From the sequence record MT682709.1: a stretch of 64,000 bases of DNA. One strand, given 5' to 3'. Origin of the DNA: Escherichia phage vB_EcoM_SP1. Within the stretch, counting starts at the first letter, position 1; each line of letters opens with the position of its first letter. The notes under the pieces were generated by a model, which worked only from the letters and a program-made list of their open reading frames with translations, ran no database searches and had not been told where the DNA came from. The position numbers and the translations under genes are program-made. This document shows, in pieces, positions 23,884 through 59,192 of the stretch.

Positions 23884-23891
23884 TTGCTTAT

Positions 23892-23899
23892 TATAAATA
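23892..23899 (+). promoter_or_regulatory. late promoter TATAAATA upstream of gene 32
   Basis: exact TATAAATA octamer. Confidence 0.5.
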
Positions 23900-23914
23900 G
23901 ATTATAATTATCTC

Positions 23915-23987
23915 ACTGACCAGCTATGAGGTCATACATCGTCATAGCACCAACTGTTAATTAAATTAAATTAAAAAGGAAATAAAA
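23915..23987 (+). promoter_or_regulatory. gene 32 autogenous translational operator (5' pseudoknot region plus unstructured UUAAA-repeat leader)
   Basis: GACCAGCTATGAGGTCATACATCGTCATAGCAC followed by TTAATTAAATTAAATTAAAAAGGAAATAAAAATG, as described for T4 gene 32. Confidence 0.6.
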
Positions 23988-26834: not shown

Positions 26835-26854
26835 AATAACGCGTGGCGGAAAAT

Positions 26855-27205
26855 ATGAACTTTAATTATTATCCTATTCTATTAGAAAAAGACGCGAAAC
26901 AACCAAAATGGCAGGGTCCTCAGTTTATCAAAGGCGTCTATCAATTAGTAGTTCCCAAAGACAAGATTTATAGCAGCAGTTATTGCACTGAATCCGCTTG
27001 CAGTATTTTCGGTAATAGTTCTCCGTATTGGAATTTTGATATAAAACTGGATAGAAATATCGATATTTGGTTGAAAGCTATGGATATTGGCAATATTACG
27101 TTTGATGAGAATAATTATCATATTATTGGTCGCTTTTCCAAACGCGGTAAAGAATTGTATTTCACGCCTGAAATTGAAAGAAAATTTGATGCTAAACCGT
27201 ATTGA
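26855..27205 (+). CDS. hypothetical protein, 116 aa, inserted between frd and td
   Basis: ORF from ATG 26855 (GTG at 26843 possible); no recognisable motif; occupies a 420-bp segment not expected at the T4 frd/td overlap. Confidence 0.5.
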   Translation: MNFNYYPILLEKDAKQPKWQGPQFIKGVYQLVVPKDKIYSSSYCTESACSIFGNSSPYWNFDIKLDRNIDIWLKAMDIGNITFDENNYHIIGRFSKRGKELYFTPEIERKFDAKPY

Positions 27206-27250: not shown

Positions 27251-28111
27251 ATGAAACAATACCAAGATTTAATTAAAGACATTTTTGAAAATGGCTATGA
27301 AACCGATGACCGAACAGGCACAGGAACAATTGCTTTGTTCGGTACTAAATTACGCTGGGATTTAACTAAAGGTTTTCCTGCAGTAACGACTAAGAAGCTC
27401 GCCTGGAAAGCTTGTATTGCTGAGCTAATATGGTTTTTGTCAGGAAGTACTAACGTAAATGATTTACGATTAATTCAGCATGATTCATTAATTCAAGGCA
27501 AAACAGTCTGGGATGAAAATTACGAAAATCAAGCAAAAGATTTAGGATACCATAGCGGTGAACTTGGTCCAATTTATGGAAAACAATGGCGTGATTTTGG
27601 CGGTGTAGACCAAATTGTAGAAGTTATTGATCGTATTAAAAAACTGCCAAATGATAGACGTCAAGTTGTTTCAGCATGGAATCCAGCTGAACTCAAGCAA
27701 ATGGCATTACCGCCTTGTCACATGTTCTATCAGTTTAATGTGCGTAATGGCTATTTGGATTTACAGTGGTATCAACGATCAGTAGATGTTTTCCTCGGTC
27801 TTCCATTTAATATTGCATCATATGCTGCGTTAGTTCATATTGTAGCTAAGATGTGTAATCTTATTCCTGGAGATTTGATATTTTCTGGCGGTAATACTCA
27901 TATCTATATGAATCACGTTGAACAATGTAAAGAAATTTTACGTCGTGAACCTAAAGAGCTTTGTGAACTGGTAATAGGCGGATTGCCTTATAAATTCCGT
28001 CATCTTTCTACTAAAGAACAATTAAAATATGTTCTTAAACTCAGGCCTAAAGATTTCGTTCTTAAAGGTTACGAATCACACCCTCCTATTAAAGGAAAAA
28101 TGGCGGTGTAA
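27251..28111 (+). CDS. td: thymidylate synthase, intronless
   Basis: 286 aa continuous ORF matching spliced T4 Td; no group I intron interrupts the ORF. Confidence 0.95.
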   Translation: MKQYQDLIKDIFENGYETDDRTGTGTIALFGTKLRWDLTKGFPAVTTKKLAWKACIAELIWFLSGSTNVNDLRLIQHDSLIQGKTVWDENYENQAKDLGYHSGELGPIYGKQWRDFGGVDQIVEVIDRIKKLPNDRRQVVSAWNPAELKQMALPPCHMFYQFNVRNGYLDLQWYQRSVDVFLGLPFNIASYAALVHIVAKMCNLIPGDLIFSGGNTHIYMNHVEQCKEILRREPKELCELVIGGLPYKFRHLSTKEQLKYVLKLRPKDFVLKGYESHPPIKGKMAV

Positions 28112-28398: not shown

Positions 28399-28678
28399 AT
28401 ATAAATCCGACTTTGATGTTAATATTCACCGTGGTACATTTTGGGGAAATTACGTCGGTAAAGATGCTGGCAGCCGGGAGGCTGCCATTGAATTATTCAA
28501 AAAAGATTTTATACGTCGAATTAAATCCGGAGAAATAACTAAAGCACATTTAGAGCCTTTACGTGGAATGAGGCTAGGATGCACATGTAAACCAAAGCCG
28601 TGTCATGGTGATATAATAGCTCATATAGTTAACCGATTGTTTAAAGACGATTTTCAAGTTGAGGACTTATGCAATTAA
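28352..28678 (+). CDS. hypothetical protein, 108 aa, with [12 protein letters not shown] motif
   Basis: Cys/His motif C-x-C-x-P-x-P-C-H-G-D; overlaps nrdA start by 10 nt. Confidence 0.5.
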
Positions 28679-30933
28679 TTAATGTTATCAAAAGTAGTGG
28701 TGTTTCTCAAAGCTTTGACCCGCAAAAAATTATTAAAGTTTTATCTTGGGCAGCTGAAGGAACATCTGTAGATCCTTATGAATTATATGAAAATATTAAA
28801 TCATATCTCCGTGATGGAATGACAACTGATGACATTCAGACTATTGTCATTAAGGCTGCTGCGAATTCTATTTCAGTTGAAGAGCCTGATTATCAATACG
28901 TAGCTGCACGCTGTTTAATGTTTGCTCTTCGTAAACATGTGTACGGACAATATGAACCACGTTCATTTATTGACCATATTTCTTACTGTGTAAATGAAGG
29001 TAAATACGACCCTGAACTGTTGTCAAAATATTCAGCAGAAGAAATTACATTTTTAGAATCAAAAATTAAGCACGAACGGGATATGGAATTTACTTATTCC
29101 GGGGCGATGCAATTAAAAGAAAAATATCTCGTTAAAGATAAAACCACTGGTCAAATTTATGAAACTCCACAGTTTGCATTTATGACTATTGGAATGGCAT
29201 TGCATCAAGATGAACCTGTTGACAGATTAAAACATGTTATTCGTTTTTATGAAGCAGTATCTACTCGACAGATTTCATTGCCAACTCCTATTATGGCTGG
29301 TTGTCGTACTCCAACTCGGCAGTTTAGTTCATGCGTTGTTATTGAGGCAGGTGATTCGCTGAAGTCTATCAACAAAGCTTCTGCTTCAATTGTTGAATAT
29401 ATCTCCAAACGAGCTGGAATCGGCATTAACGTTGGTATGATTCGTGCCGAAGGTTCTAAGATTGGCACAGGTGAAGTGCGTCATACTGGTGTTATTCCTT
29501 TTTGGAAACATTTTCAGACTGCTGTTAAATCATGTTCACAGGGCGGAATTCGTGGCGGCGCTGCTACTGCTTATTATCCTATTTGGCATTTGGAAGTTGA
29601 AAATCTTCTCGTTTTGAAAAATAACAAAGGCGTAGAAGAAAACCGTATCCGTCATATGGATTATGGTGTCCAGCTGAATGATTTGATGATGGAACGTTTT
29701 GGAAAGAACGACTACATTACTTTGTTCAGTCCGCATGAAATGGGTGGCGAGCTTTATTATTCTTATTTTAAAGACCAAGACCGTTTCCGTGAATTATACG
29801 AAGCAGCAGAAAAAGATCCTAATATTCGTAAAAAGCGTATTAAAGCTCGTGAATTATTTGAATTGCTCATGACTGAACGCTCAGGAACAGCAAGGATTTA
29901 TGTACAGTTCATTGATAATACGAATAACTATACTCCGTTTATTCGTGAAAAGGCACCTATTCGTCAGAGTAACTTGTGTTGTGAAATTGCTATTCCAACA
30001 AATGATGTGAATAGTCCTGATGCTGAAATTGGATTGTGCACGTTATCTGCATTTGTGTTGGATAACTTCGATTGGCAAGACCAAGATAAAATTAATGAAT
30101 TAGCAGAAGTTCAAGTTCGCGCTCTTGATAATCTTTTGGATTACCAAGGATATCCAGTTCCTGAAGCAGAAAAAGCTAAAAAGCGTCGAAATCTTGGTGT
30201 AGGTGTTACCAACTATGCAGCTTGGCTGGCAAGTAACTTTGCTTCTTATGAAGATGCTAACGATTTAACACATGAACTATTTGAGAGATTACAGTATGGA
30301 CTCATTAAAGCATCCATTAAGCTCGCCAAAGAAAAAGGACCTTGCGAATATTATTCAGACACTCGTTGGTCTCGAGGCGAATTACCTATCGACTGGTACA
30401 ATAAAAAGATTGACCAAATCGCAGCTCCAAAATACGTTTGTGACTGGTCGTCGCTGCGGGAAGACCTTAAGCTCTTTGGCATCCGTAATAGCACATTATC
30501 AGCACTTATGCCATGTGAGTCATCTTCCCAAGTTTCTAACAGTACAAACGGTATCGAGCCTCCACGTGGACCAGTCTCTGTTAAAGAATCAAAAGAGGGC
30601 TCCTTTAATCAAGTCGTGCCCAATATTGAGCATAACATAGACCTCTATGATTATACATGGAAATTAGCTAAGAAAGGTAATAAACCTTATCTTACGCAGG
30701 TAGCTATTATGCTGAAATGGGTTTGTCAATCAGCTTCAGCGAATACATACTATGACCCCCAAATCTTCCCTAAAGGCAAGGTTCCAATGTCAATAATGAT
30801 TGATGACATGCTATACGGATGGTATTATGGCATTAAAAATTTCTATTATCATAATACCCGTGATGGTTCTGGTACTGATGATTATGAAATAGAAACTCCT
30901 AAAGCCGACGATTGTGCAGCGTGTAAATTGTAA
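28669..30933 (+). CDS. nrdA: aerobic ribonucleotide reductase large subunit
   Basis: 754 aa as T4 NrdA; ATP-cone N-terminus, catalytic Cys motifs, C-terminal CAACKL. Confidence 0.95.
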   Translation: MQLINVIKSSGVSQSFDPQKIIKVLSWAAEGTSVDPYELYENIKSYLRDGMTTDDIQTIVIKAAANSISVEEPDYQYVAARCLMFALRKHVYGQYEPRSFIDHISYCVNEGKYDPELLSKYSAEEITFLESKIKHERDMEFTYSGAMQLKEKYLVKDKTTGQIYETPQFAFMTIGMALHQDEPVDRLKHVIRFYEAVSTRQISLPTPIMAGCRTPTRQFSSCVVIEAGDSLKSINKASASIVEYISKRAGIGINVGMIRAEGSKIGTGEVRHTGVIPFWKHFQTAVKSCSQGGIRGGAATAYYPIWHLEVENLLVLKNNKGVEENRIRHMDYGVQLNDLMMERFGKNDYITLFSPHEMGGELYYSYFKDQDRFRELYEAAEKDPNIRKKRIKARELFELLMTERSGTARIYVQFIDNTNNYTPFIREKAPIRQSNLCCEIAIPTNDVNSPDAEIGLCTLSAFVLDNFDWQDQDKINELAEVQVRALDNLLDYQGYPVPEAEKAKKRRNLGVGVTNYAAWLASNFASYEDANDLTHELFERLQYGLIKASIKLAKEKGPCEYYSDTRWSRGELPIDWYNKKIDQIAAPKYVCDWSSLREDLKLFGIRNSTLSALMPCESSSQVSNSTNGIEPPRGPVSVKESKEGSFNQVVPNIEHNIDLYDYTWKLAKKGNKPYLTQVAIMLKWVCQSASANTYYDPQIFPKGKVPMSIMIDDMLYGWYYGIKNFYYHNTRDGSGTDDYEIETPKADDCAACKL

Positions 30934-31664
30934 TGAATTATCAAAAAATCTATAATGACCTAATTTCCCGAGCTCAGGCTCGGGAACCTTTATCTGAATA
31001 TAAAGAGACACATCATATAGTCCCTAAATGCATGGGAGGTTCTGATGATAAAGAAAATTTAGTTGAATTAACAGCTAGAGAACATTTTATAGCGCATCTA
31101 TTACTATGTAAGATAAATGAAGGCCATTTTGGGCTTGCCTCTGCGTTAACGTTAATGGCAACAGATAAAGCTGGTAATAGAATTAATAACAGATTGTATA
31201 GCTTGCACAGAAAATTATTTGCTAAAGCTAATTCTGATTTCTTTAAGAAATATTGGAAAAATAATCCTCATCCTAGAGGAATGTTAGGCAAGCATCATAA
31301 AAACGAAACTAAACAACATGTATCAAACGTGAATAGGTATGCATGCCCATCTATCGAAATACATAAATTCTCATTAGATGGGGATTTCATAGAAACCTTT
31401 CACTCTATTGCGGCAGCGTCCAGGTCAGTTAATGGAAACGGGTCAAATATCAAATATTGTGCTGAGGGTAAATTTCAATATGCCTATGGATTTAGATGGT
31501 CATATCAACTTGATGCAAAGTTTGATAAAATACAACCAAGAGATTATAAAGGAATCCGCGGTAAGAAATGGATTAATAATGGAAGTGAATGCACGCTTAT
31601 AGGTAAAGATGATATTATACCGCCAGGTTGGAAACGCGGCAGAATTTTAAAGAGGAAAAATTAA
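30933..31664 (+). CDS. mobE: free-standing HNH homing endonuclease (mobE-like)
   Basis: 243 aa; HNH core HHIVPKCMGGSDDKENLVELTAREHFIAH; C-terminal YGFRWSY motif; inserted between nrdA and nrdB with TAATG overlaps at both ends. Confidence 0.75.
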   Translation: MNYQKIYNDLISRAQAREPLSEYKETHHIVPKCMGGSDDKENLVELTAREHFIAHLLLCKINEGHFGLASALTLMATDKAGNRINNRLYSLHRKLFAKANSDFFKKYWKNNPHPRGMLGKHHKNETKQHVSNVNRYACPSIEIHKFSLDGDFIETFHSIAAASRSVNGNGSNIKYCAEGKFQYAYGFRWSYQLDAKFDKIQPRDYKGIRGKKWINNGSECTLIGKDDIIPPGWKRGRILKRKN

Positions 31665-32842
31665 TGTCTACAGTTTTTAATACAAATCCAGTTGATGTTT
31701 TAAAAGAACCTATGTTTTTTGGTTCAGGTCTTGGTATTGCGCGTTATGATATTCAACGGCATCGAGTATTTGAAGAACTTACAGAAAAGTCCTTATCATT
31801 TTTCTGGCGCCCGGAAGAAGTAAACTTAATGATGGATGCTGCACAGTTTAATAAGCTTCCTCAGTATCAGCAAAATATTTTTACTAATAATCTGAAGTAT
31901 CAATCACTTTTGGATAGCATTCAGGGTCGTGCGCCGTCTGCTGTACTTATGTCATTAATTTCAGATCCGAGCCTTGATACATGGGTTGCTACGTGGACTT
32001 TTAGTGAAACTATTCACAGCCGTTCATATACACATATCATGCGAAATCTTTATACTGATCCATCGAAGGTATTTGATGAAATTGTATTAGATGAAGCTAT
32101 TATGAAACGTGCTGAATCCATTGGACGTTATTATGATGATGTTCTGATTAAAACCCGTGAATGGGAAAATGCTAAAGAATTTGTAGAACTAGCTAAAGAA
32201 TCTCCTGATGCCGACTTTCGTTTAAACCGAGCTATTAAACGAGAAGCCGAAGCTAAACGTGCTTTAATGAAGTCTCTTTACCTCTGCTTGCATGTAATCA
32301 ACGCATTAGAAGCTATTCGTTTTTATGTATCTTTCGCATGTACCTTTAACTTCCATAAAAACATGGAAATCATGGAAGGTAATGCCAAGATTATGAAGTT
32401 CATTGCACGTGATGAGCAGCTTCACCTTAAAGGCACCCAATATATTATTCGTCAGCTTCAATCCGGTACTGATGGTGATGAATGGGTTAAAATTGCTCAA
32501 GAGTGTGAACAAGAAGCAGTTGATATTTTCATGGAAGTTAACCGCCAAGAAAAAGATTGGGCAGTTCATTTATTTAAAGATGGCGATGTTCCTGGATTAA
32601 ATACAAATAGCATGTGGGGTTTTATTGATTACTTAACTGTATCTCGTATGAAACAGTGTGGTCTTCCATGCCCAATTACCGATGCTCCGGTTAAACATCC
32701 ATATCCTTGGATTCGTGAATATCTTAATTCTGATAATGTTCAATCCGCGCCACAAGAAGTAGAATTGTCATCTTACCTTGTTGCACAGATTGATAATGAT
32801 GTTGATGATAAAGTTATGATGAGTTTTAAAAAATACTTTTAA
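31664..32842 (+). CDS. nrdB: aerobic ribonucleotide reductase small subunit, intronless
   Basis: 392 aa continuous ORF from ATG 31664; di-iron ligands (E..H motifs) present; no intron. Confidence 0.9.
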   Translation: MSTVFNTNPVDVLKEPMFFGSGLGIARYDIQRHRVFEELTEKSLSFFWRPEEVNLMMDAAQFNKLPQYQQNIFTNNLKYQSLLDSIQGRAPSAVLMSLISDPSLDTWVATWTFSETIHSRSYTHIMRNLYTDPSKVFDEIVLDEAIMKRAESIGRYYDDVLIKTREWENAKEFVELAKESPDADFRLNRAIKREAEAKRALMKSLYLCLHVINALEAIRFYVSFACTFNFHKNMEIMEGNAKIMKFIARDEQLHLKGTQYIIRQLQSGTDGDEWVKIAQECEQEAVDIFMEVNRQEKDWAVHLFKDGDVPGLNTNSMWGFIDYLTVSRMKQCGLPCPITDAPVKHPYPWIREYLNSDNVQSAPQEVELSSYLVAQIDNDVDDKVMMSFKKYF

Positions 32843-35889: not shown

Positions 35890-37114
<1,225 letters not shown>

Positions 37115-37845: not shown

Positions 37846-38373
37846 ATGAGCGAATGGTTTGAAGAAGATAAGGTTTATCGCTTTAAAGCTGGATATAAAG
37901 ATATTTTTAATGAAACTTGCGGGGCTAATAAACGAATTGCCCAGTTTATTGGGGAAAATTCATTTAAAGTAAAAATAGATCCTGCGAAAAATGTTATTAG
38001 CATTAAACGCGAAATTGATGATTGTTGGTATAAAGCTGTTGATGTAATGGGCGAATCTTATAAAGTTAGCCCGTTATTTTCAATTGCTTATATGTTAGAA
38101 TATTCTTTTTTCGAAGAAGTTCAAAAAGATGATTCTGTCAGTAAATTTGAAATTAAAACTGATAAAGAAATTAAGTGGAAAGTAGTAGGTATTACTGGTT
38201 GTATGTTTTATATCTATGCTCAAACTGATACGAAGGAAGAAGCTAAAAAGAAAGCTCTAGAATATCTTGAAGAGTATGAAGAAGGTCCGGTAATGATTAC
38301 TCAAGATGCTGAATTAGTTTCTGTCAAATTAGTTAAAAACGTTGAAAGTAAGGAGCTGGGATCAACATGCTAA
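37846..38373 (+). CDS. hypothetical protein, 175 aa
   Basis: ORF with RBS AUGAGGAAAUUGAA. Confidence 0.55.
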   Translation: MSEWFEEDKVYRFKAGYKDIFNETCGANKRIAQFIGENSFKVKIDPAKNVISIKREIDDCWYKAVDVMGESYKVSPLFSIAYMLEYSFFEEVQKDDSVSKFEIKTDKEIKWKVVGITGCMFYIYAQTDTKEEAKKKALEYLEEYEEGPVMITQDAELVSVKLVKNVESKELGSTC

Positions 38374-46288: not shown

Positions 46289-48385
46289 ATGATGGAACTA
46301 ATTACAGAATTATTTGACGAAGATACTACTCTTCCGATTACAAACTTAAATCCAAAGAAGAAAATACCACAAATTTTTTCAGTTCATGTTGATGACGCAA
46401 TTGAACAACCAGGTTTTCGTTTATGTACCTATACATCTGGAGGTGATACTAATCGCGATTTAAAGATGGGCGATAAAATGATGCATATTGTTCCTTTTAC
46501 ATTAACCGCTAAAGGTTCAATTGCTAAATTGAAAGGTCTTGGTCCAAGCCCAATTAATTATATCAATTCGGTTTTTACTGTTGCAATGCAAACAATGCGT
46601 CAGTATAAAATTGATGCCTGTATGCTCCGTATTCTTAAGTCTAAAACTGCTGGTCAAGCTCGACAAATTCAAGTTATTGCTGATAGACTTATCCGTAGTC
46701 GTTCAGGTGGCAGATACGTCCTTCTTAAGGAACTCTGGGATTATGATAAAAAGTATGCATATATTCTTATACATCGCAAAAATGTATCACTAGAAGACAT
46801 TCCAGGGGTTCCGGAAATTAGTACCGAGCTCTTTACTAAAGTTGAATCGAAGGTCGGTGATGTTTATATCAATAAAGATACTGGAGCTCAAGTAACTAAA
46901 AATGAGGCAATTGCAGCATCTATTGCACAAGAAAATGATAAACGTTCTGACCAAGCTGTAATCGTTAAAGTTAAAATTTCCCGTAGAGCAATTGCACAAA
47001 GTCAATCATTAGAGTCTTCTAGATTTGAAAGTGAATTATTCCAGAAGTATGAATCTACAGCAGCTAATTTTAATAAACCAGCTACTGCACCTTTAATTCC
47101 CGAAGCAGAAGAAATGAAAATTGGAATTAATTCATTAGCTTCTAAAACTAAGGCAGCAAAAATCATTGCCGAAGGAACTGCAGATGAACTTCATTATGAC
47201 TATAAATTCTTTTCAAAAAGTGAGGTTAATGAAGTTTCTGAAAAAATTAAAGATGTAATTCTTAATGCGATTAAAAATGAACCGACTACTTCAATAAAAT
47301 GTTTAGAGAAATACGCAGCAGCTGTTAATCAATTATTTGAAGAATATAAAGATACTTGGCTTGATAAACATAATAAAACCCGTAAAGGACAGCCAGATGA
47401 AGTCTGGGAAGAAATAACTAAAAATTCCTGGAACGCGACAAAAACTAAATTCCTCAAAAGAATGATTTATAGTTTCTCTGGAATTGGTGCAGGTCCAATG
47501 ATTGATATTACTATTGCCCGTGATGGTTCTAAATATACTCCATCACAAAAGCGTGGCATTAGAGAGTATTGCGGTTCAGGATATACTGACATCAATAATC
47601 TTCTTTTGGGTCGTTATGATCCAGAACGTTATGAAGTAATGAGTGAAAAAGAAATTGAAGCTGCTATAACTAATTTAGATTCTGCTTTTGAAAATGGTGA
47701 TCGTATACCAGAAGGCATTACAGTTTATCGTGCTCAAAGTATGACTGCTCCTATATACGAAGCACTAGTTAAAAATAAAGTATTCTATTTCAGAAATTTT
47801 GTATCTACTTCTTTAACTCCTATCATTTTTGGACGTTTTGGAATTACACATGCTGGTATTGGTCTTTTAGAACCAGAATCTCGCAATGAATTAACAGTTG
47901 ATAAAAATGAAGAAGGAATAACTATTAATCCAAACGAAATAAGAGCGTATAAAGAAAATCCTGAATACGTTAAAGTTCAAATAGGATGGGCAATTGATGG
48001 AGCTCATAAAGTTAATGTTGTATATCCAGGAAGTCTCGGAATAGCAACAGAAGCTGAAGTTATTCTACCGCGTGGATTGATGGTCAAAGTTAATAAAATA
48101 ACTGATGCTTCTAATAATGACGGAACAACATCTAATAATACAAAACTCATTCAAGCTGAAGTTATGACTACGGAAGAGCTCACCGAATCGGTAATCTATG
48201 ATGGAGACCATTTAATGGAAACTGGTGAATTGGTTGCAATGACAGGTGATATTGAAATAGAAGACAGAGTTGACTTTGCATCATTTGTTTCATCAAACGT
48301 TAAACAGAAAGTAGAATCATCTCTTGGAATTATTGCGTCTTGCATAGATATTACAAACATGCCTTACAAGTTCGTTCAAGGATAA
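46289..48385 (+). CDS. alt: ADP-ribosyltransferase Alt (head-packaged)
   Basis: 698 aa; N-terminus MELITELFD with I-x-E prohead-protease site; position after gene 30. Confidence 0.85.
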   Translation: MMELITELFDEDTTLPITNLNPKKKIPQIFSVHVDDAIEQPGFRLCTYTSGGDTNRDLKMGDKMMHIVPFTLTAKGSIAKLKGLGPSPINYINSVFTVAMQTMRQYKIDACMLRILKSKTAGQARQIQVIADRLIRSRSGGRYVLLKELWDYDKKYAYILIHRKNVSLEDIPGVPEISTELFTKVESKVGDVYINKDTGAQVTKNEAIAASIAQENDKRSDQAVIVKVKISRRAIAQSQSLESSRFESELFQKYESTAANFNKPATAPLIPEAEEMKIGINSLASKTKAAKIIAEGTADELHYDYKFFSKSEVNEVSEKIKDVILNAIKNEPTTSIKCLEKYAAAVNQLFEEYKDTWLDKHNKTRKGQPDEVWEEITKNSWNATKTKFLKRMIYSFSGIGAGPMIDITIARDGSKYTPSQKRGIREYCGSGYTDINNLLLGRYDPERYEVMSEKEIEAAITNLDSAFENGDRIPEGITVYRAQSMTAPIYEALVKNKVFYFRNFVSTSLTPIIFGRFGITHAGIGLLEPESRNELTVDKNEEGITINPNEIRAYKENPEYVKVQIGWAIDGAHKVNVVYPGSLGIATEAEVILPRGLMVKVNKITDASNNDGTTSNNTKLIQAEVMTTEELTESVIYDGDHLMETGELVAMTGDIEIEDRVDFASFVSSNVKQKVESSLGIIASCIDITNMPYKFVQG

Positions 48386-57395: not shown

Positions 57396-57638
57396 TTAAA
57401 AGCTTTCTTCTACTTCATCGTCTGAATCTTCTAATTCAGCTCTTTTTCCTGCCAAAGCATCTCTGACAGAGATGTCATCAGTATCTTTTAATTCAGTTTC
57501 TTTAACTCTTTTCTTATAATAAGCTTCAAGTTCTTCTAGACCTTCTAATGTTTGGCAAGAGGCAATTTTACCCATAAATTCATCAATAGAAGCTTCATAA
57601 AGAAATTGTTTAAATTCTAGTAACATCTTTTTCTCCAA
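57396..57638 (-). CDS. UvsW.1 small acidic protein
   Basis: 80 aa acidic ORF immediately downstream of uvsW on the same strand. Confidence 0.65.
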   Translation of the reverse strand: MEKKMLLEFKQFLYEASIDEFMGKIASCQTLEGLEELEAYYKKRVKETELKDTDDISVRDALAGKRAELEDSDDEVEESF

Positions 57639-57651
57639 AGGGCCGAAGCCC

Positions 57652-59163
57652 TTATAAATTAACTGTTTTCATTACGTAATTAAATTTTTCATCTGCGTAG
57701 CGCTGAATACGATCAATGCCGTGTTTTAAAAGATAGTTCAAATGAACATATTTCTTTTTCGTATTAGCAGATTTTGGCTTGACGCCACAATCATCAATGA
57801 GGTCCCAGACCGTTGCGATTGTTTTAGAACCATGCTTACGTAATACACGACCTATTGTTTGCAATACAATAATTTTAGATTTAACACCGTGCGCTAAAAC
57901 AACGTGATGCAGATTTTTAACTGAAATACCAGTAGAAAATACACCATAACTAGCTACTATAATTATTCCTTTACCATTTTCAGCTAAGGTTTTCATTACG
58001 TTGCGTGTTTCAGTATCAACTTCCCCTGATACGTAATAAACTTTATCGTATTCATTTTTAATTAAATCGAAAATAGCTTTACCATGTGATACATGCTTAA
58101 ACATGACAAAAGCGTTTTCATCTTTTTGCGCAAGTTTAATAGCTAATTTAGCGATCCATTTATTTCTTTTACTGAGCCCAGTAATAATTTTTATTTCTTC
58201 TTGGTAAGTTTTTCCCTTTAATTTAGTAGTGAACTCATCAGGATAACGAAGAAAAATACTATTAATTTTTAGCTCAGTTACTTGTCCATCTTCCATTAAT
58301 TTAGAAGTCGTTACTGGCTTAAATATTTCACCAAACATTCCAACATACTGCATGATATTGGCTTTGCCATCTCGTAATGAACCAGACAAACCGAATTTGA
58401 ACATGCAGTTATTTAAACCTGATATGATAGATGAAATACTTTTTCCTGTAGCAAGATGGCATTCATCATTCATCATCATTCCAAACTGTGAGAACCATTC
58501 TTTTGGTTGTTTTACTACAGTTTGCCATGTACCAACAATTACTGGTGCATCATTTTTATATTTATCATCTTTTGATGCACCGCCGCCGATTTTCTTTATC
58601 ATTGCATGACTGAATAAACGATAATCAACAAAGTCATCAGCCATCTGAGTTGTTAAAGCAGTTGTTGGAACAATGATAAGAATTTTACCTTCATAATTTT
58701 CCAAATAATAACGTGCAAGCAAAGCTTGAATTAAAGATTTACCTGCGGATGTTGGAAGATTAAGAATTCTACGACGATTAACTAACCCTTCGAACACTGC
58801 ATCTTTTTGATACCAATGCGGTTCAATTCTTTTATTTCCTGAATAGATTTCTAATTTAGAAAGCCATTCATCAAAATCTTTTCTTGATAATTCTTCTTTT
58901 TCGTTAATTTGCGGGTCAATCCAGGCTTTATAGCCAAAGTTATCGCAGAACTTTTTAATTTGCCCAACTAAGCCGAACGGAAGAAGGCGATTATAATCTA
59001 AAAGACGGATTCGTCCATCCCAGTGACCATACTTGTATTTCGGATTAAAACGATACCCATCAGCTTCAAAGCTAAAGAAATCACGGAGTTCATGAAATGT
59101 ACTTTCTTCACAATCAATTCTCACGTGACTAAAATCATAAAAATGTACTTTAATGTCAGTCAT
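57652..59163 (-). CDS. uvsW: SF2 DNA helicase UvsW
   Basis: 503 aa; motifs PTSAGKS (Walker A) and DECH box. Confidence 0.9.
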   Translation of the reverse strand: MTDIKVHFYDFSHVRIDCEESTFHELRDFFSFEADGYRFNPKYKYGHWDGRIRLLDYNRLLPFGLVGQIKKFCDNFGYKAWIDPQINEKEELSRKDFDEWLSKLEIYSGNKRIEPHWYQKDAVFEGLVNRRRILNLPTSAGKSLIQALLARYYLENYEGKILIIVPTTALTTQMADDFVDYRLFSHAMIKKIGGGASKDDKYKNDAPVIVGTWQTVVKQPKEWFSQFGMMMNDECHLATGKSISSIISGLNNCMFKFGLSGSLRDGKANIMQYVGMFGEIFKPVTTSKLMEDGQVTELKINSIFLRYPDEFTTKLKGKTYQEEIKIITGLSKRNKWIAKLAIKLAQKDENAFVMFKHVSHGKAIFDLIKNEYDKVYYVSGEVDTETRNVMKTLAENGKGIIIVASYGVFSTGISVKNLHHVVLAHGVKSKIIVLQTIGRVLRKHGSKTIATVWDLIDDCGVKPKSANTKKKYVHLNYLLKHGIDRIQRYADEKFNYVMKTVNL

Positions 59164-59192
59164 GTCTAAATACCATGTAATAAATATATCTA

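Follow-up and report, generated by a model that had tools for sequence, protein, structure and literature searches.

What is a gene of 243 codons doing between nrdA and nrdB, and at which DNA is its product aimed? The original prediction for this locus of Escherichia phage vB_EcoM_SP1 (MT682709.1) was a free-standing HNH homing endonuclease, lodged there with overlapping stop and start codons at both ends. We followed this up in the window, by which we mean the whole 64,000-nucleotide stretch that was analysed, and found the gene to be the RB3 allele of mobE, which in T-even phages encodes a free-standing HNH homing endonuclease. A mobE between nrdA and nrdB is textbook material, an ordinary selfish gene in T4-like phages and of little discovery value; the haplotype comparison described below offers a prediction that is inexpensive to test: a different target, the 3′ end of nrdA. 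The present analysis shows what the gene is, how it is built, that it is under purifying selection and that it bears the marks of recent horizontal spread; for nicking and homing, for the function of the terminator and for the reliance on promoters further upstream we draw on the literature about T4 mobE. As a whole, the explanation we favour (an RB3 allele of mobE, expressed by coupled translation and homing near the nrdA/nrdB junction) is one we hold with considerable confidence.

The gene occupies 30933..31664 on the plus strand. Upstream on the same strand lies nrdA (28669..30933, 754 aa), which encodes the large subunit of ribonucleotide reductase and matches the Pfam families ATP-cone, Ribonuc_red_lgN and Ribonuc_red_lgC; downstream comes nrdB (31664..32842, plus strand, 392 aa), intron-less and covered by one unbroken match to Ribonuc_red_sm. 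Both junctions are as predicted. The nrdA stop codon TAA (30931-30933) overlaps the mobE ATG (30933-30935) in a TAATG at 30931-30935, an arrangement common to the window, T4, RB3 and 12 other carriers, and the mobE stop codon TAA (31662-31664) overlaps the nrdB ATG (31664-31666) in another TAATG. We rejected the idea of a chance open reading frame: the gene is 100% conserved, syntenic and under purifying selection. The window's source is a Tequatrovirus; from td to nrdA it is about 95.6% identical to T4 in alignment. No second Mob paralog was found in the window.

At the DNA level mobE is identical at 732/732 nt to its counterparts in RB3 (AY262130.2, KM606994) and Sf23. The gene has therefore been described already, and GenBank annotation of the RB3-type allele goes back to the RB3 records (AY262130.2 / ABI48926.1; RB3_226 in KM606994 and NC_025419). 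The first report of mobE in RB3 is said to be that of Sandegren et al. in 2005. The allele is present in about 54-61 database phages, and the window protein matches PHROG 655, 'homing endonuclease', with an E value of 1e-57. In IMG/VR we saw one close relative by protein, and four loci by the DNA pattern at the end of nrdA.

The prediction had also remarked that td and nrdB are uninterrupted and that no segE-like gene sits beside uvsW, and both remarks stand. In td (27251-28111, 286 aa, continuous) the site of the T4 group I intron with I-TevI is empty, a clean absence of 1017 nt at 27799/27800 (plus strand) in the T4 alignment. In nrdB the site of the group I intron with I-TevIII of T4 and RB3 (32337..32340, plus strand) is likewise empty; about 598 nt are cleanly absent at the T4 intron position, and the protein reads ...YVSFACTFNFHK. 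At the uvsW/inh junction (59157..59177), the segE site of T4, the two genes are about 20 nt apart, compared with 636 nt in T4, and the same alignment finds segG absent at 23884-23920. Nor does mobE itself lie within a group I intron, being placed between two complete genes. A scan with Rfam gathering thresholds was negative for group I introns in the window, yet it failed to pick up the established nrdB introns of T4 and RB3 as well and is thus uninformative; with that positive control failing, intron absence rests on td and nrdB being colinear with the spliced T4 genes. mobE is therefore present in the window phage with none of five other T4 mobile elements in the part compared (td intron/I-TevI, nrdB intron/I-TevIII, segE, segG), and its standing alone among them fits independent gain and loss. 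The combination of mobE with an intron-less nrdB is the usual state for carriers of the RB3-type allele: nrdB is uninterrupted, in the stretch fetched, in all 10 of 10 carriers outside RB3, the window included, and the intron occurs in the RB3 group alone.

Protein anatomy and allele types

The protein is built in two parts: an N-terminal HNH nuclease (H28/N42/H51), followed by a string of small DNA-binding modules comprising a NUMOD3-like stretch, a NUMOD1 helix-turn-helix and a basic C-terminal module. The canonical HNH core and the C-terminal YGFRWSY module named in the prediction are both there. The core, aa 21-55 (30993..31097, plus strand; ...EYKETHHIVPKCMGGSDDKENLVELTAREHFIAH), is identified by Pfam HNH (E 0.0012), by structure alignments and by invariant columns. 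It takes the form HH(27-28)...N42...H51/H55, these residues being invariant in 7 homologs, and H28, N42 and H51 are likely the catalytic ones. In alignments they fall on the HNH motifs of proteins whose structures have been solved, namely the 6me0 maturase, McrA and Cas8f-HNH (6me0, 6ghc, 8ydb). Inactive catalytic residues would have spoken against a nuclease; the H-N-H residues are intact.

The NUMOD1-type helix-turn-helix module spans aa 147-191 (31371..31505, plus strand) and ends in YAYGFRWSY. Its Pfam match (PF07453, aa 147-177) scores 25.9 bits, above the cut-off of 22.8, and recurs in 6 of 7 homologs; YGFRWSY, aa 185-191, follows directly after it. The region also weakly matches the DNA-binding end of TIGR01453, a group I intron endonuclease family. 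The basic module, aa 205-243 (31545..31661, plus strand; KGIRGKKWINNG...IPPGWKRGRILKRKN), has no Pfam match in the window protein or its homologs; it is conserved in homologs from other genera and presumably provides another contact to DNA. Searches of PDB sequences by phmmer and profile matched the short HNH motif alone, with no I-HmuI and nothing for the DNA-binding part, and a single-sequence AlphaFold2 model (mean pLDDT 36) was too low in confidence for judging a beta-beta-alpha-metal fold.

How does this compare with the version of the gene that has been studied? mobE of T4, at the same locus, was characterised experimentally by Wilson & Edgell (2009, PMC2790892), and alignment with T4 MobE was the check the prediction had proposed. 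BLASTP aligned aa 1-105, with 97% identity over aa 1-58 and weak similarity thereafter; the remainder is unrelated. There is thus no full-length homology to T4 MobE, the C-terminal 185 aa being unrelated, and what the alignment recovers is mobE in its RB3 allele, with aa 1-58 alone shared with T4. Tequatrovirus mobE comes in three allele types: RB3-type (243 aa), T4-type (232 aa) and slur04-type (213 aa). (The T4 length is that of a recent assembly; NC_000866, with a 141-aa mobE plus nrdB.1, differs by two 1-nt insertions.) A 5′ cassette, nt 1-170 or aa 1-57 (30933..31102, plus strand), is 96.5% identical in nucleotides to T4-type and 84-93% to slur04-type mobE, and beyond nt 170 no DNA relationship is left among the alleles. 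The name 'mobE' is used as if for a single gene, in annotation pipelines and publications alike, although the T4 and RB3-type proteins have only a 58-residue HNH cassette in common. The target mapped for T4 should not be carried over to the RB3-type allele without a test.

Might MobE be something other than the homing nuclease, binding DNA as a specificity factor or regulator and bringing in a different phage nuclease? Wilson & Edgell themselves allowed for action through another nuclease, having never obtained cleavage by T4 MobE in vitro (PMC2790892), and the window protein's own Pfam HNH score (PF01844) is 19.3 bits, below the gathering cut-off of 21.4. Six of 7 family members do match that model at E<=0.01, the best at 2.8e-5. 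Deletion of the HNH motif in T4 MobE, however, abolishes nicking (Wilson & Edgell 2009, PMC2790892), the H-N-H residues do not vary among six genera, and the HNH cassette is the sole part conserved among all three allele types. We regard recruitment as highly improbable.

Expression, selection and spread

mobE has no ribosome-binding site of its own, and we found no plausible promoter for it; translation would be coupled to the nrdA stop codon through UAAUG. A sigma-70-like match across the mobE start (30928-30956) we read as chance; its -10 hexamer is TATAAC in T4. An intrinsic-terminator hairpin lies inside the gene at 30965..30986 (plus strand), with a 9-bp stem and a 4-nt loop followed by CCUUUAUCU; its start lies about 30 nt after the AUG, where about 27 nt is the spacing expected of MobE, and the RNA folds at -16.7 kcal/mol (z -4.3). 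Its sequence is identical in T4 mobE, where it terminates 30-50% of transcripts (PMC2790892). This weak terminator, some 30 nt into the gene, would attenuate the mobE transcript. The Shine-Dalgarno sequence of nrdB, AAGAGGA (31650..31656, plus strand), falls within the last mobE codons, 8 nt before the ATG, and is homologous to the pre-nrdB sequence AAGTGGAAAATTTATG of mobE-less phages. Aplg8 and JoYop, the two most divergent carriers, which encode an intact 248-aa MobE variant, have a crossover exactly at this Shine-Dalgarno sequence. A simple pattern scan of 31100-31664 found no MotA-type middle promoter for nrdB with <=2 mismatches; the same consensus scan finds TGCTTAA-12-TACAAT in T4.

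Such intimate wiring invites the thought that mobE is an immobile, domesticated remnant, which once homed and is now kept for the nrd operon, its coupled translation, nrdB ribosome-binding site and terminator balancing NrdA and NrdB levels, its nuclease no longer driving spread. With the nrdB Shine-Dalgarno inside mobE and overlaps at both junctions, the gene is embedded in a way that, as Wilson & Edgell argued (PMC2790892), selects against deletion; there is, moreover, no self-protective polymorphism at the known T4 nick site. The pattern of variation points the other way. pN/pS is about 0.1 across the whole protein, DNA-binding modules included, and disrupted copies number 0 of the 9 alleles compared. 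Between the window and RB3, mobE differs at 0/732 nt (as it does from Sf23), set against 44/1500 nt in the adjoining nrdA and 29/480 nt in nrdB; identical alleles occur in phages whose flanks differ by 3-6%, and the RB3-type allele adjoins at least three different nrdB haplotypes, which indicates recent transfer. From about nt 96 the window's nrdB haplotype matches that of the mobE-less phage G2133 and not that of RB3. Furthermore, about 80% of related phages thrive with a 51-nt spacer where mobE would be, and therefore the operon does not need it. Domestication we consider improbable.

Identical mobE amid differing flanks is what a mobile gene in the course of recent spread should show. We infer that the RB3-type allele in the window is active. 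Homing would proceed during mixed infection: MobE would nick or cut the DNA of a mobE-less relative near the nrdA/nrdB junction, and recombinational repair from the mobE-carrying genome would copy mobE and a short flank into the recipient.

Target site

T4 MobE nicks T2 nrdB at nt 122-126 (PMC2790892), which accords, as does our haplotype comparison, with the earlier guess that nrdA or nrdB of competing phages is the target. Does the RB3-type allele act at the same place? We compared 24 Tequatrovirus junctions: 22 taken from the phage collection, one on an IMG/VR contig and that of the window, the loci in IMG/VR by themselves being too few for a population analysis. Carriers of T4- and slur04-type alleles differ from empty phages by 14 fixed differences in nrdB, a private haplotype at nt 6-119, and this tract ends at the published T4 nick site, which makes it a positive control of the approach. 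RB3-type carriers, Aplg8 and JoYop included, show no fixed difference from empty phages in nrdB. Their fixed differences are confined to the last 27 nt of nrdA (30906..30932, plus strand), where 7 substitutions (positions -27, -24, -17, -14, -12, -3 and -1) give GCCGACGATTGTGCAGCGTGTAAATTGTAA in place of the GCTGAAGATTGTTCATCCTGTAAATTATGA of mobE-less phages. The block is present in 11/11 RB3-type carriers (...DDCAACKL) and 0/8 mobE-less phages (...EDCSSCKL), although these 11 carriers and 8 empty phages are non-independent lineages and the association could simply reflect tight physical linkage.

These haplotypes mark this 27-nt stretch as a candidate for the region that RB3-type MobE recognises, or that confers immunity to it, and suggest that this allele targets the nrdA 3′ end; it probably recognises a different DNA site from the studied T4 version, its cut site predicted to lie in the nrdA 3′ end or the spacer and not at nrdB nt 122-126. 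Codon 42 of nrdB in RB3-type carriers is AAG, as in T2, with no protective change at the T4 nick site, which leaves two options: another target, or an enzyme that cleaves its own genome too.

The alternative is that the RB3-type allele keeps T4 MobE's specificity for nrdB nt 122-126, the block at the end of nrdA then being no more than a hitch-hiking relic of the first insertion. All these phages agree in locus, in HNH cassette and in the conserved nrdB DNA that encodes FFWRPEE, and the nrdA block is common to T4-type and RB3-type carriers. That block, however, has decayed in 3/5 T4/slur04-type carriers and in 0/11 RB3-type carriers. RB3-type carriers have no fixed nrdB difference over nt 7-300 (two have lost even the codon-2 difference), the window's RB3-matching tract stops short of nrdB nt 96, without reaching the T4 nick site downstream, and the C-terminal 185 aa, the presumed DNA-binding part, is unrelated to that of T4 MobE. 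Shared specificity seems unlikely to us, though far from negligible. The fuller version of the retargeting reading is itself tentative, and we put it somewhat short of an even chance: the three allele types would share a 5′ cassette (nrdA end, HNH core and terminator) with DNA-binding modules swapped in place, the RB3-type having been retargeted to the last ~30 bp of nrdA or the 51-nt spacer, and the nrdA block would be an immunity or co-conversion footprint. If the nrdA 3′ end is truly the target, here is a natural example of homing endonuclease retargeting by in-place exchange of DNA-binding modules.

Relatives and comparable systems

The general plan of MobE resembles that of I-HmuI and I-HmuII, the intron-encoded HNH nicking homing endonucleases of Bacillus phages SPO1 and SP82, in which an N-terminal HNH without zinc-binding cysteines is followed by an extended NUMOD-type DNA-binding chain. 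One MobE homolog weakly matches PF22083, I-HmuI_NUMOD-like. The differences are that the Bacillus enzymes are encoded within introns and that no sequence match was found between MobE and their solved structure.

With T4, the window shares the locus, the overlap of nrdA stop and mobE ATG, the first 58 residues with the HNH motif and the internal hairpin, and neither gene has a promoter immediately upstream. T4 MobE has NUMOD3 repeats and a C-terminal CPHCGK...HYDKC zinc finger where the window protein has a NUMOD1 helix-turn-helix and a basic tail, and the MotA-type promoter in the 3′ part of T4 mobE has no counterpart found in the window allele.

The same insertion site is used by an unrelated protein. 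Hef of phage U5, reported by Sandegren et al. 2005 as cited in PMC2988022, is encoded by a free-standing homing endonuclease gene that has inserted at the nrdA/nrdB site of this T-even phage. An IMG/VR Tequatrovirus contig has a 486-aa open reading frame at this site, with weak PD-(D/E)xK signals, that is possibly hef-like.

Further afield, homologs at 44-72% amino acid identity occupy the nrdA/nrdB junction in Gaprivervirus, Gualtarvirus, Gelderlandvirus, Roskildevirus and Schizotequatrovirus. The mobE-type genes of the Straboviridae (Vibrio phage phi-pp2 PEG274, PMC3468402; S16, MP1, RZ, Cronus and PVA8) encode full-length homologs at the same junction, with that range of identity in the C-terminal part and the TAATG overlap mostly kept; they belong to other genera and hosts than the window phage, and the PVA8 homolog has, in addition, a T4-type zinc finger at its C terminus. 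Closest of all is RB3, whose mobE agrees in every one of its nucleotides, in position and in both TAATG junctions. RB3 differs in also having the nrdB group I intron with an intact I-TevIII, which the window is without, and the window's nrdB diverges from that of RB3 at about nt 96 to resemble the nrdB of G2133.

A known mobE allele between nrdA and nrdB

The 243-aa ORF at 30933-31664 (+) sits between two complete genes: nrdA (754 aa) on its left and nrdB (392 aa) on its right, the latter giving a single unbroken Ribonuc_red_sm match in Pfam. At both ends of mobE the upstream stop overlaps the downstream ATG as TAATG, and the final mobE codons contain the Shine-Dalgarno sequence of nrdB (AAGAGGA, 31650-31656). 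The original prediction had described just this ORF, with an HNH core, a YGFRWSY module and stop/start overlaps at both ends, and the ORF call, the junctions and Pfam bear it out. A NUMOD1 match above the Pfam curated cut-off covers aa 147-177, with YAYGFRWSY immediately after it; the HNH score falls slightly under its cut-off (19.3 versus 21.4 bits). The HNH residues themselves, HH(27-28)...N42...H51, are present and unchanged across seven homologs, and the motif aligns with HNH motifs from proteins of known structure (group II intron maturase 6me0, McrA 6ghc and Cas8f-HNH).

The gene matches RB3 mobE (AY262130.2, annotated as 'MobE, putative homing endonuclease'; KM606994) at 100% of its 732 nt, and likewise its counterpart in Shigella phage Sf23. 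This identity and the invariant HNH motif support the predicted free-standing HNH homing endonuclease. Judged by sequence, the window mobE exactly duplicates an allele that had been annotated before, from a homing endonuclease class that is well studied, and as such is already known. The RB3-type allele occurs at 95% identity or more in about 54-61 of ~690 related phage records; a 51-nt spacer replaces mobE in most of the remainder. Among the carriers examined, the commonest arrangement is mobE with an nrdB that lacks the intron. The same junction also holds homologs (44-72% identity across the C-terminal 185 aa) in five further genera, represented by Gaprivervirus RZ, Gualtarvirus MP1, Gelderlandvirus S16, Roskildevirus Cronus and Schizotequatrovirus PVA8. 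A Vibrio phage with a mobE-type gene at this junction has been published (PMC3468402). A 486-aa ORF takes up the site in a Tequatrovirus contig (IMGVR_UViG_2974742932_000001); its PD-(D/E)xK signals (REase_MTES_1575, DUF559) are weak and below threshold, and it may be a hef-type occupant as described for phage U5.

T4 mobE lacks its own promoter, is co-transcribed with nrdA and is attenuated by a terminator hairpin 27 nt past the AUG (PMC2790892). The identical hairpin sequence is found in the window at 30965-30986 (9-bp stem, -16.7 kcal/mol, z -4.3). T4 has a MotA-type promoter candidate in the 3' part of mobE; none was found in the RB3-type allele of the window.

Mobility, and the T4 elements that are missing

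The gene bears the marks of an element moving between genomes together with short flanks, as judged from the following findings combined. None of the nine mobE alleles compared is disrupted, two further carriers (phages Aplg8 and JoYop) have an intact 248-aa variant, and pN/pS against the window is ~0.1. With 0 differences from RB3 and Sf23 in the 732 nt of mobE, the window differs from RB3 at 44 of 1500 nt in nrdA and at 29 of the first 480 nt of nrdB. Its nrdB matches RB3 only to about nt 50-95 and beyond that matches the mobE-less phage G2133. At least three distinct nrdB haplotypes adjoin the same mobE allele.

The window is a Tequatrovirus, ~95-96% identical over 24 kb to RB3, U115, Sf23 and others. 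Alignment to T4 confirms that td and nrdB are uninterrupted and that uvsW has no segE beside it, as had been read from the sequence: the td intron with I-TevI (1017 nt in T4) is cleanly absent at 27799/27800, the nrdB intron with I-TevIII (~598 nt) at 32337/32340, where NrdB reads through as ...YVSFACTFNFHK, and segE at 59157-59177. Missing too is segG beside gene 32 (23884-23920). An Rfam scan of the window gave no intron match, to which we attach no weight because it also missed the known introns of the T4 and RB3 control loci. No second Mob paralog was found within the window.

Other departures from T4 accompany these. Frd and td overlap directly in T4; the window has an additional 409 nt there and a 120-aa ORF (26843-27205, +; PHROG 1928, function unknown, E 1e-33). 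A 106-aa ORF between pseT.1 and pseT (35890-36210, +; PHROG 2364, function unknown, E 1e-58) is likewise not in T4, nor is a 520-nt segment between cd.3 and cd.2 with a 175-aa ORF (37846-38373, +) that has no Pfam match. Within the alt region, the stretch 47098-47528 fails to align with T4 DNA, both flanks being 94-96% identical. In the uvsW region (57396-59163, -), uvsW stops at TAA after 503 aa, followed by a GGGCTTCGGCCC hairpin and then by uvsW.1, a separate ORF with a ribosome-binding site ahead of it; the T4 reference (NC_000866.4) has one base fewer and a single annotated 587-aa UvsW.

Allele types and where they may cut

At least three allele types go by the name mobE: RB3-type (243 aa), T4-type (232 aa) and slur04-type (213 aa). 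They have in common the nrdA end and aa 1-57, with the HNH core and terminator (nucleotide identity to the window 96.5% for T4-type, 84-93% for slur04-type), and beyond this diverge completely. The alignment to T4 MobE that the original prediction had proposed shows the gene to be mobE, in its RB3 and not its T4 form. In the RB3 type the divergent part has a NUMOD1 helix-turn-helix and a basic tail; T4- and slur04-type proteins have NUMOD3 repeats there, with a zinc finger at the C-terminus. There is evidence of module shuffling between types: the homolog in Vibrio phage PVA8 (L008 2330-3172) joins an RB3-type body to a zinc finger, CPHCGK..NKGNALRWHYDNC, otherwise confined to T4- and slur04-type proteins. 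The T4 reference (L003 35717-36417, NC_000866) splits MobE into mobE (141 aa) and nrdB.1, with one additional base at each of nt 351 and 438 relative to a recent T4 assembly (L001 3501-4199, OZ209057), where it is a single 232-aa ORF.

T4 mobE is required for strand-specific nicking of T2 nrdB at nt 122-126; it is inherited preferentially and brings the defunct I-TevIII intron along (PMC2790892). Our comparison took in 200 nt at the nrdA end and 300 nt at the nrdB start for 22 Tequatrovirus junctions (9 RB3-type, 2 T4-type, 3 slur04-type, 8 empty), to which the two most divergent RB3-type carriers, Aplg8 and JoYop, were later added to make 11. Carriers of the T4 and slur04 types are set apart from every empty phage by 14 nrdB positions, from nt 6 to 119, and in nrdA only by -3 and -1. 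The comparison thus recovers the known T4 target, as this nrdB tract stops at the published nick site. RB3-type carriers show instead seven fixed differences in the final 27 nt of nrdA (11/11; GCCGACGATTGTGCAGCGTGTAAATTGTAA versus GCTGAAGATTGTTCATCCTGTAAATTATGA in empty phages, NrdA ending CAACKL versus CSSCKL), and codon 2 as the sole difference in nrdB. Even that is lost in Aplg8 (L097 634-1380) and JoYop (L098 689-1435), where a crossover in GGAAAA just 5' of the nrdB ATG restored the empty-phage start ATGAGC, changed the MobE C-terminus to ...KRKIYEHSF and left mobE and nrdB overlapping by 17 nt; the adjoining nrdB of Aplg8 has the slur04-type haplotype. The T2-like sequence coding for LTEK(Q/S)LSFFWRPEE, which lies at the T4 nick site, is retained by RB3-type carriers of six genera. 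Separately, nrdB aa ~165-200 (window 32150-32270; the same stretch in loci L009-L014 and L079-L083) shows no correlation with mobE type.

These patterns suggest, at odds near or slightly below even, that the RB3-type allele recognises the 3' end of nrdA, or else the spacer, instead of nrdB nt 122-126. The nrdA block is partly recombined away in three of five T4/slur04-type carriers and in none of 11 RB3-type carriers. Tight physical linkage could account for the patterns as well, and the lineages compared are few and not independent. The sole new element here is the proposal, open to testing, that enzymes of the RB3 and T4 types differ in their targets.
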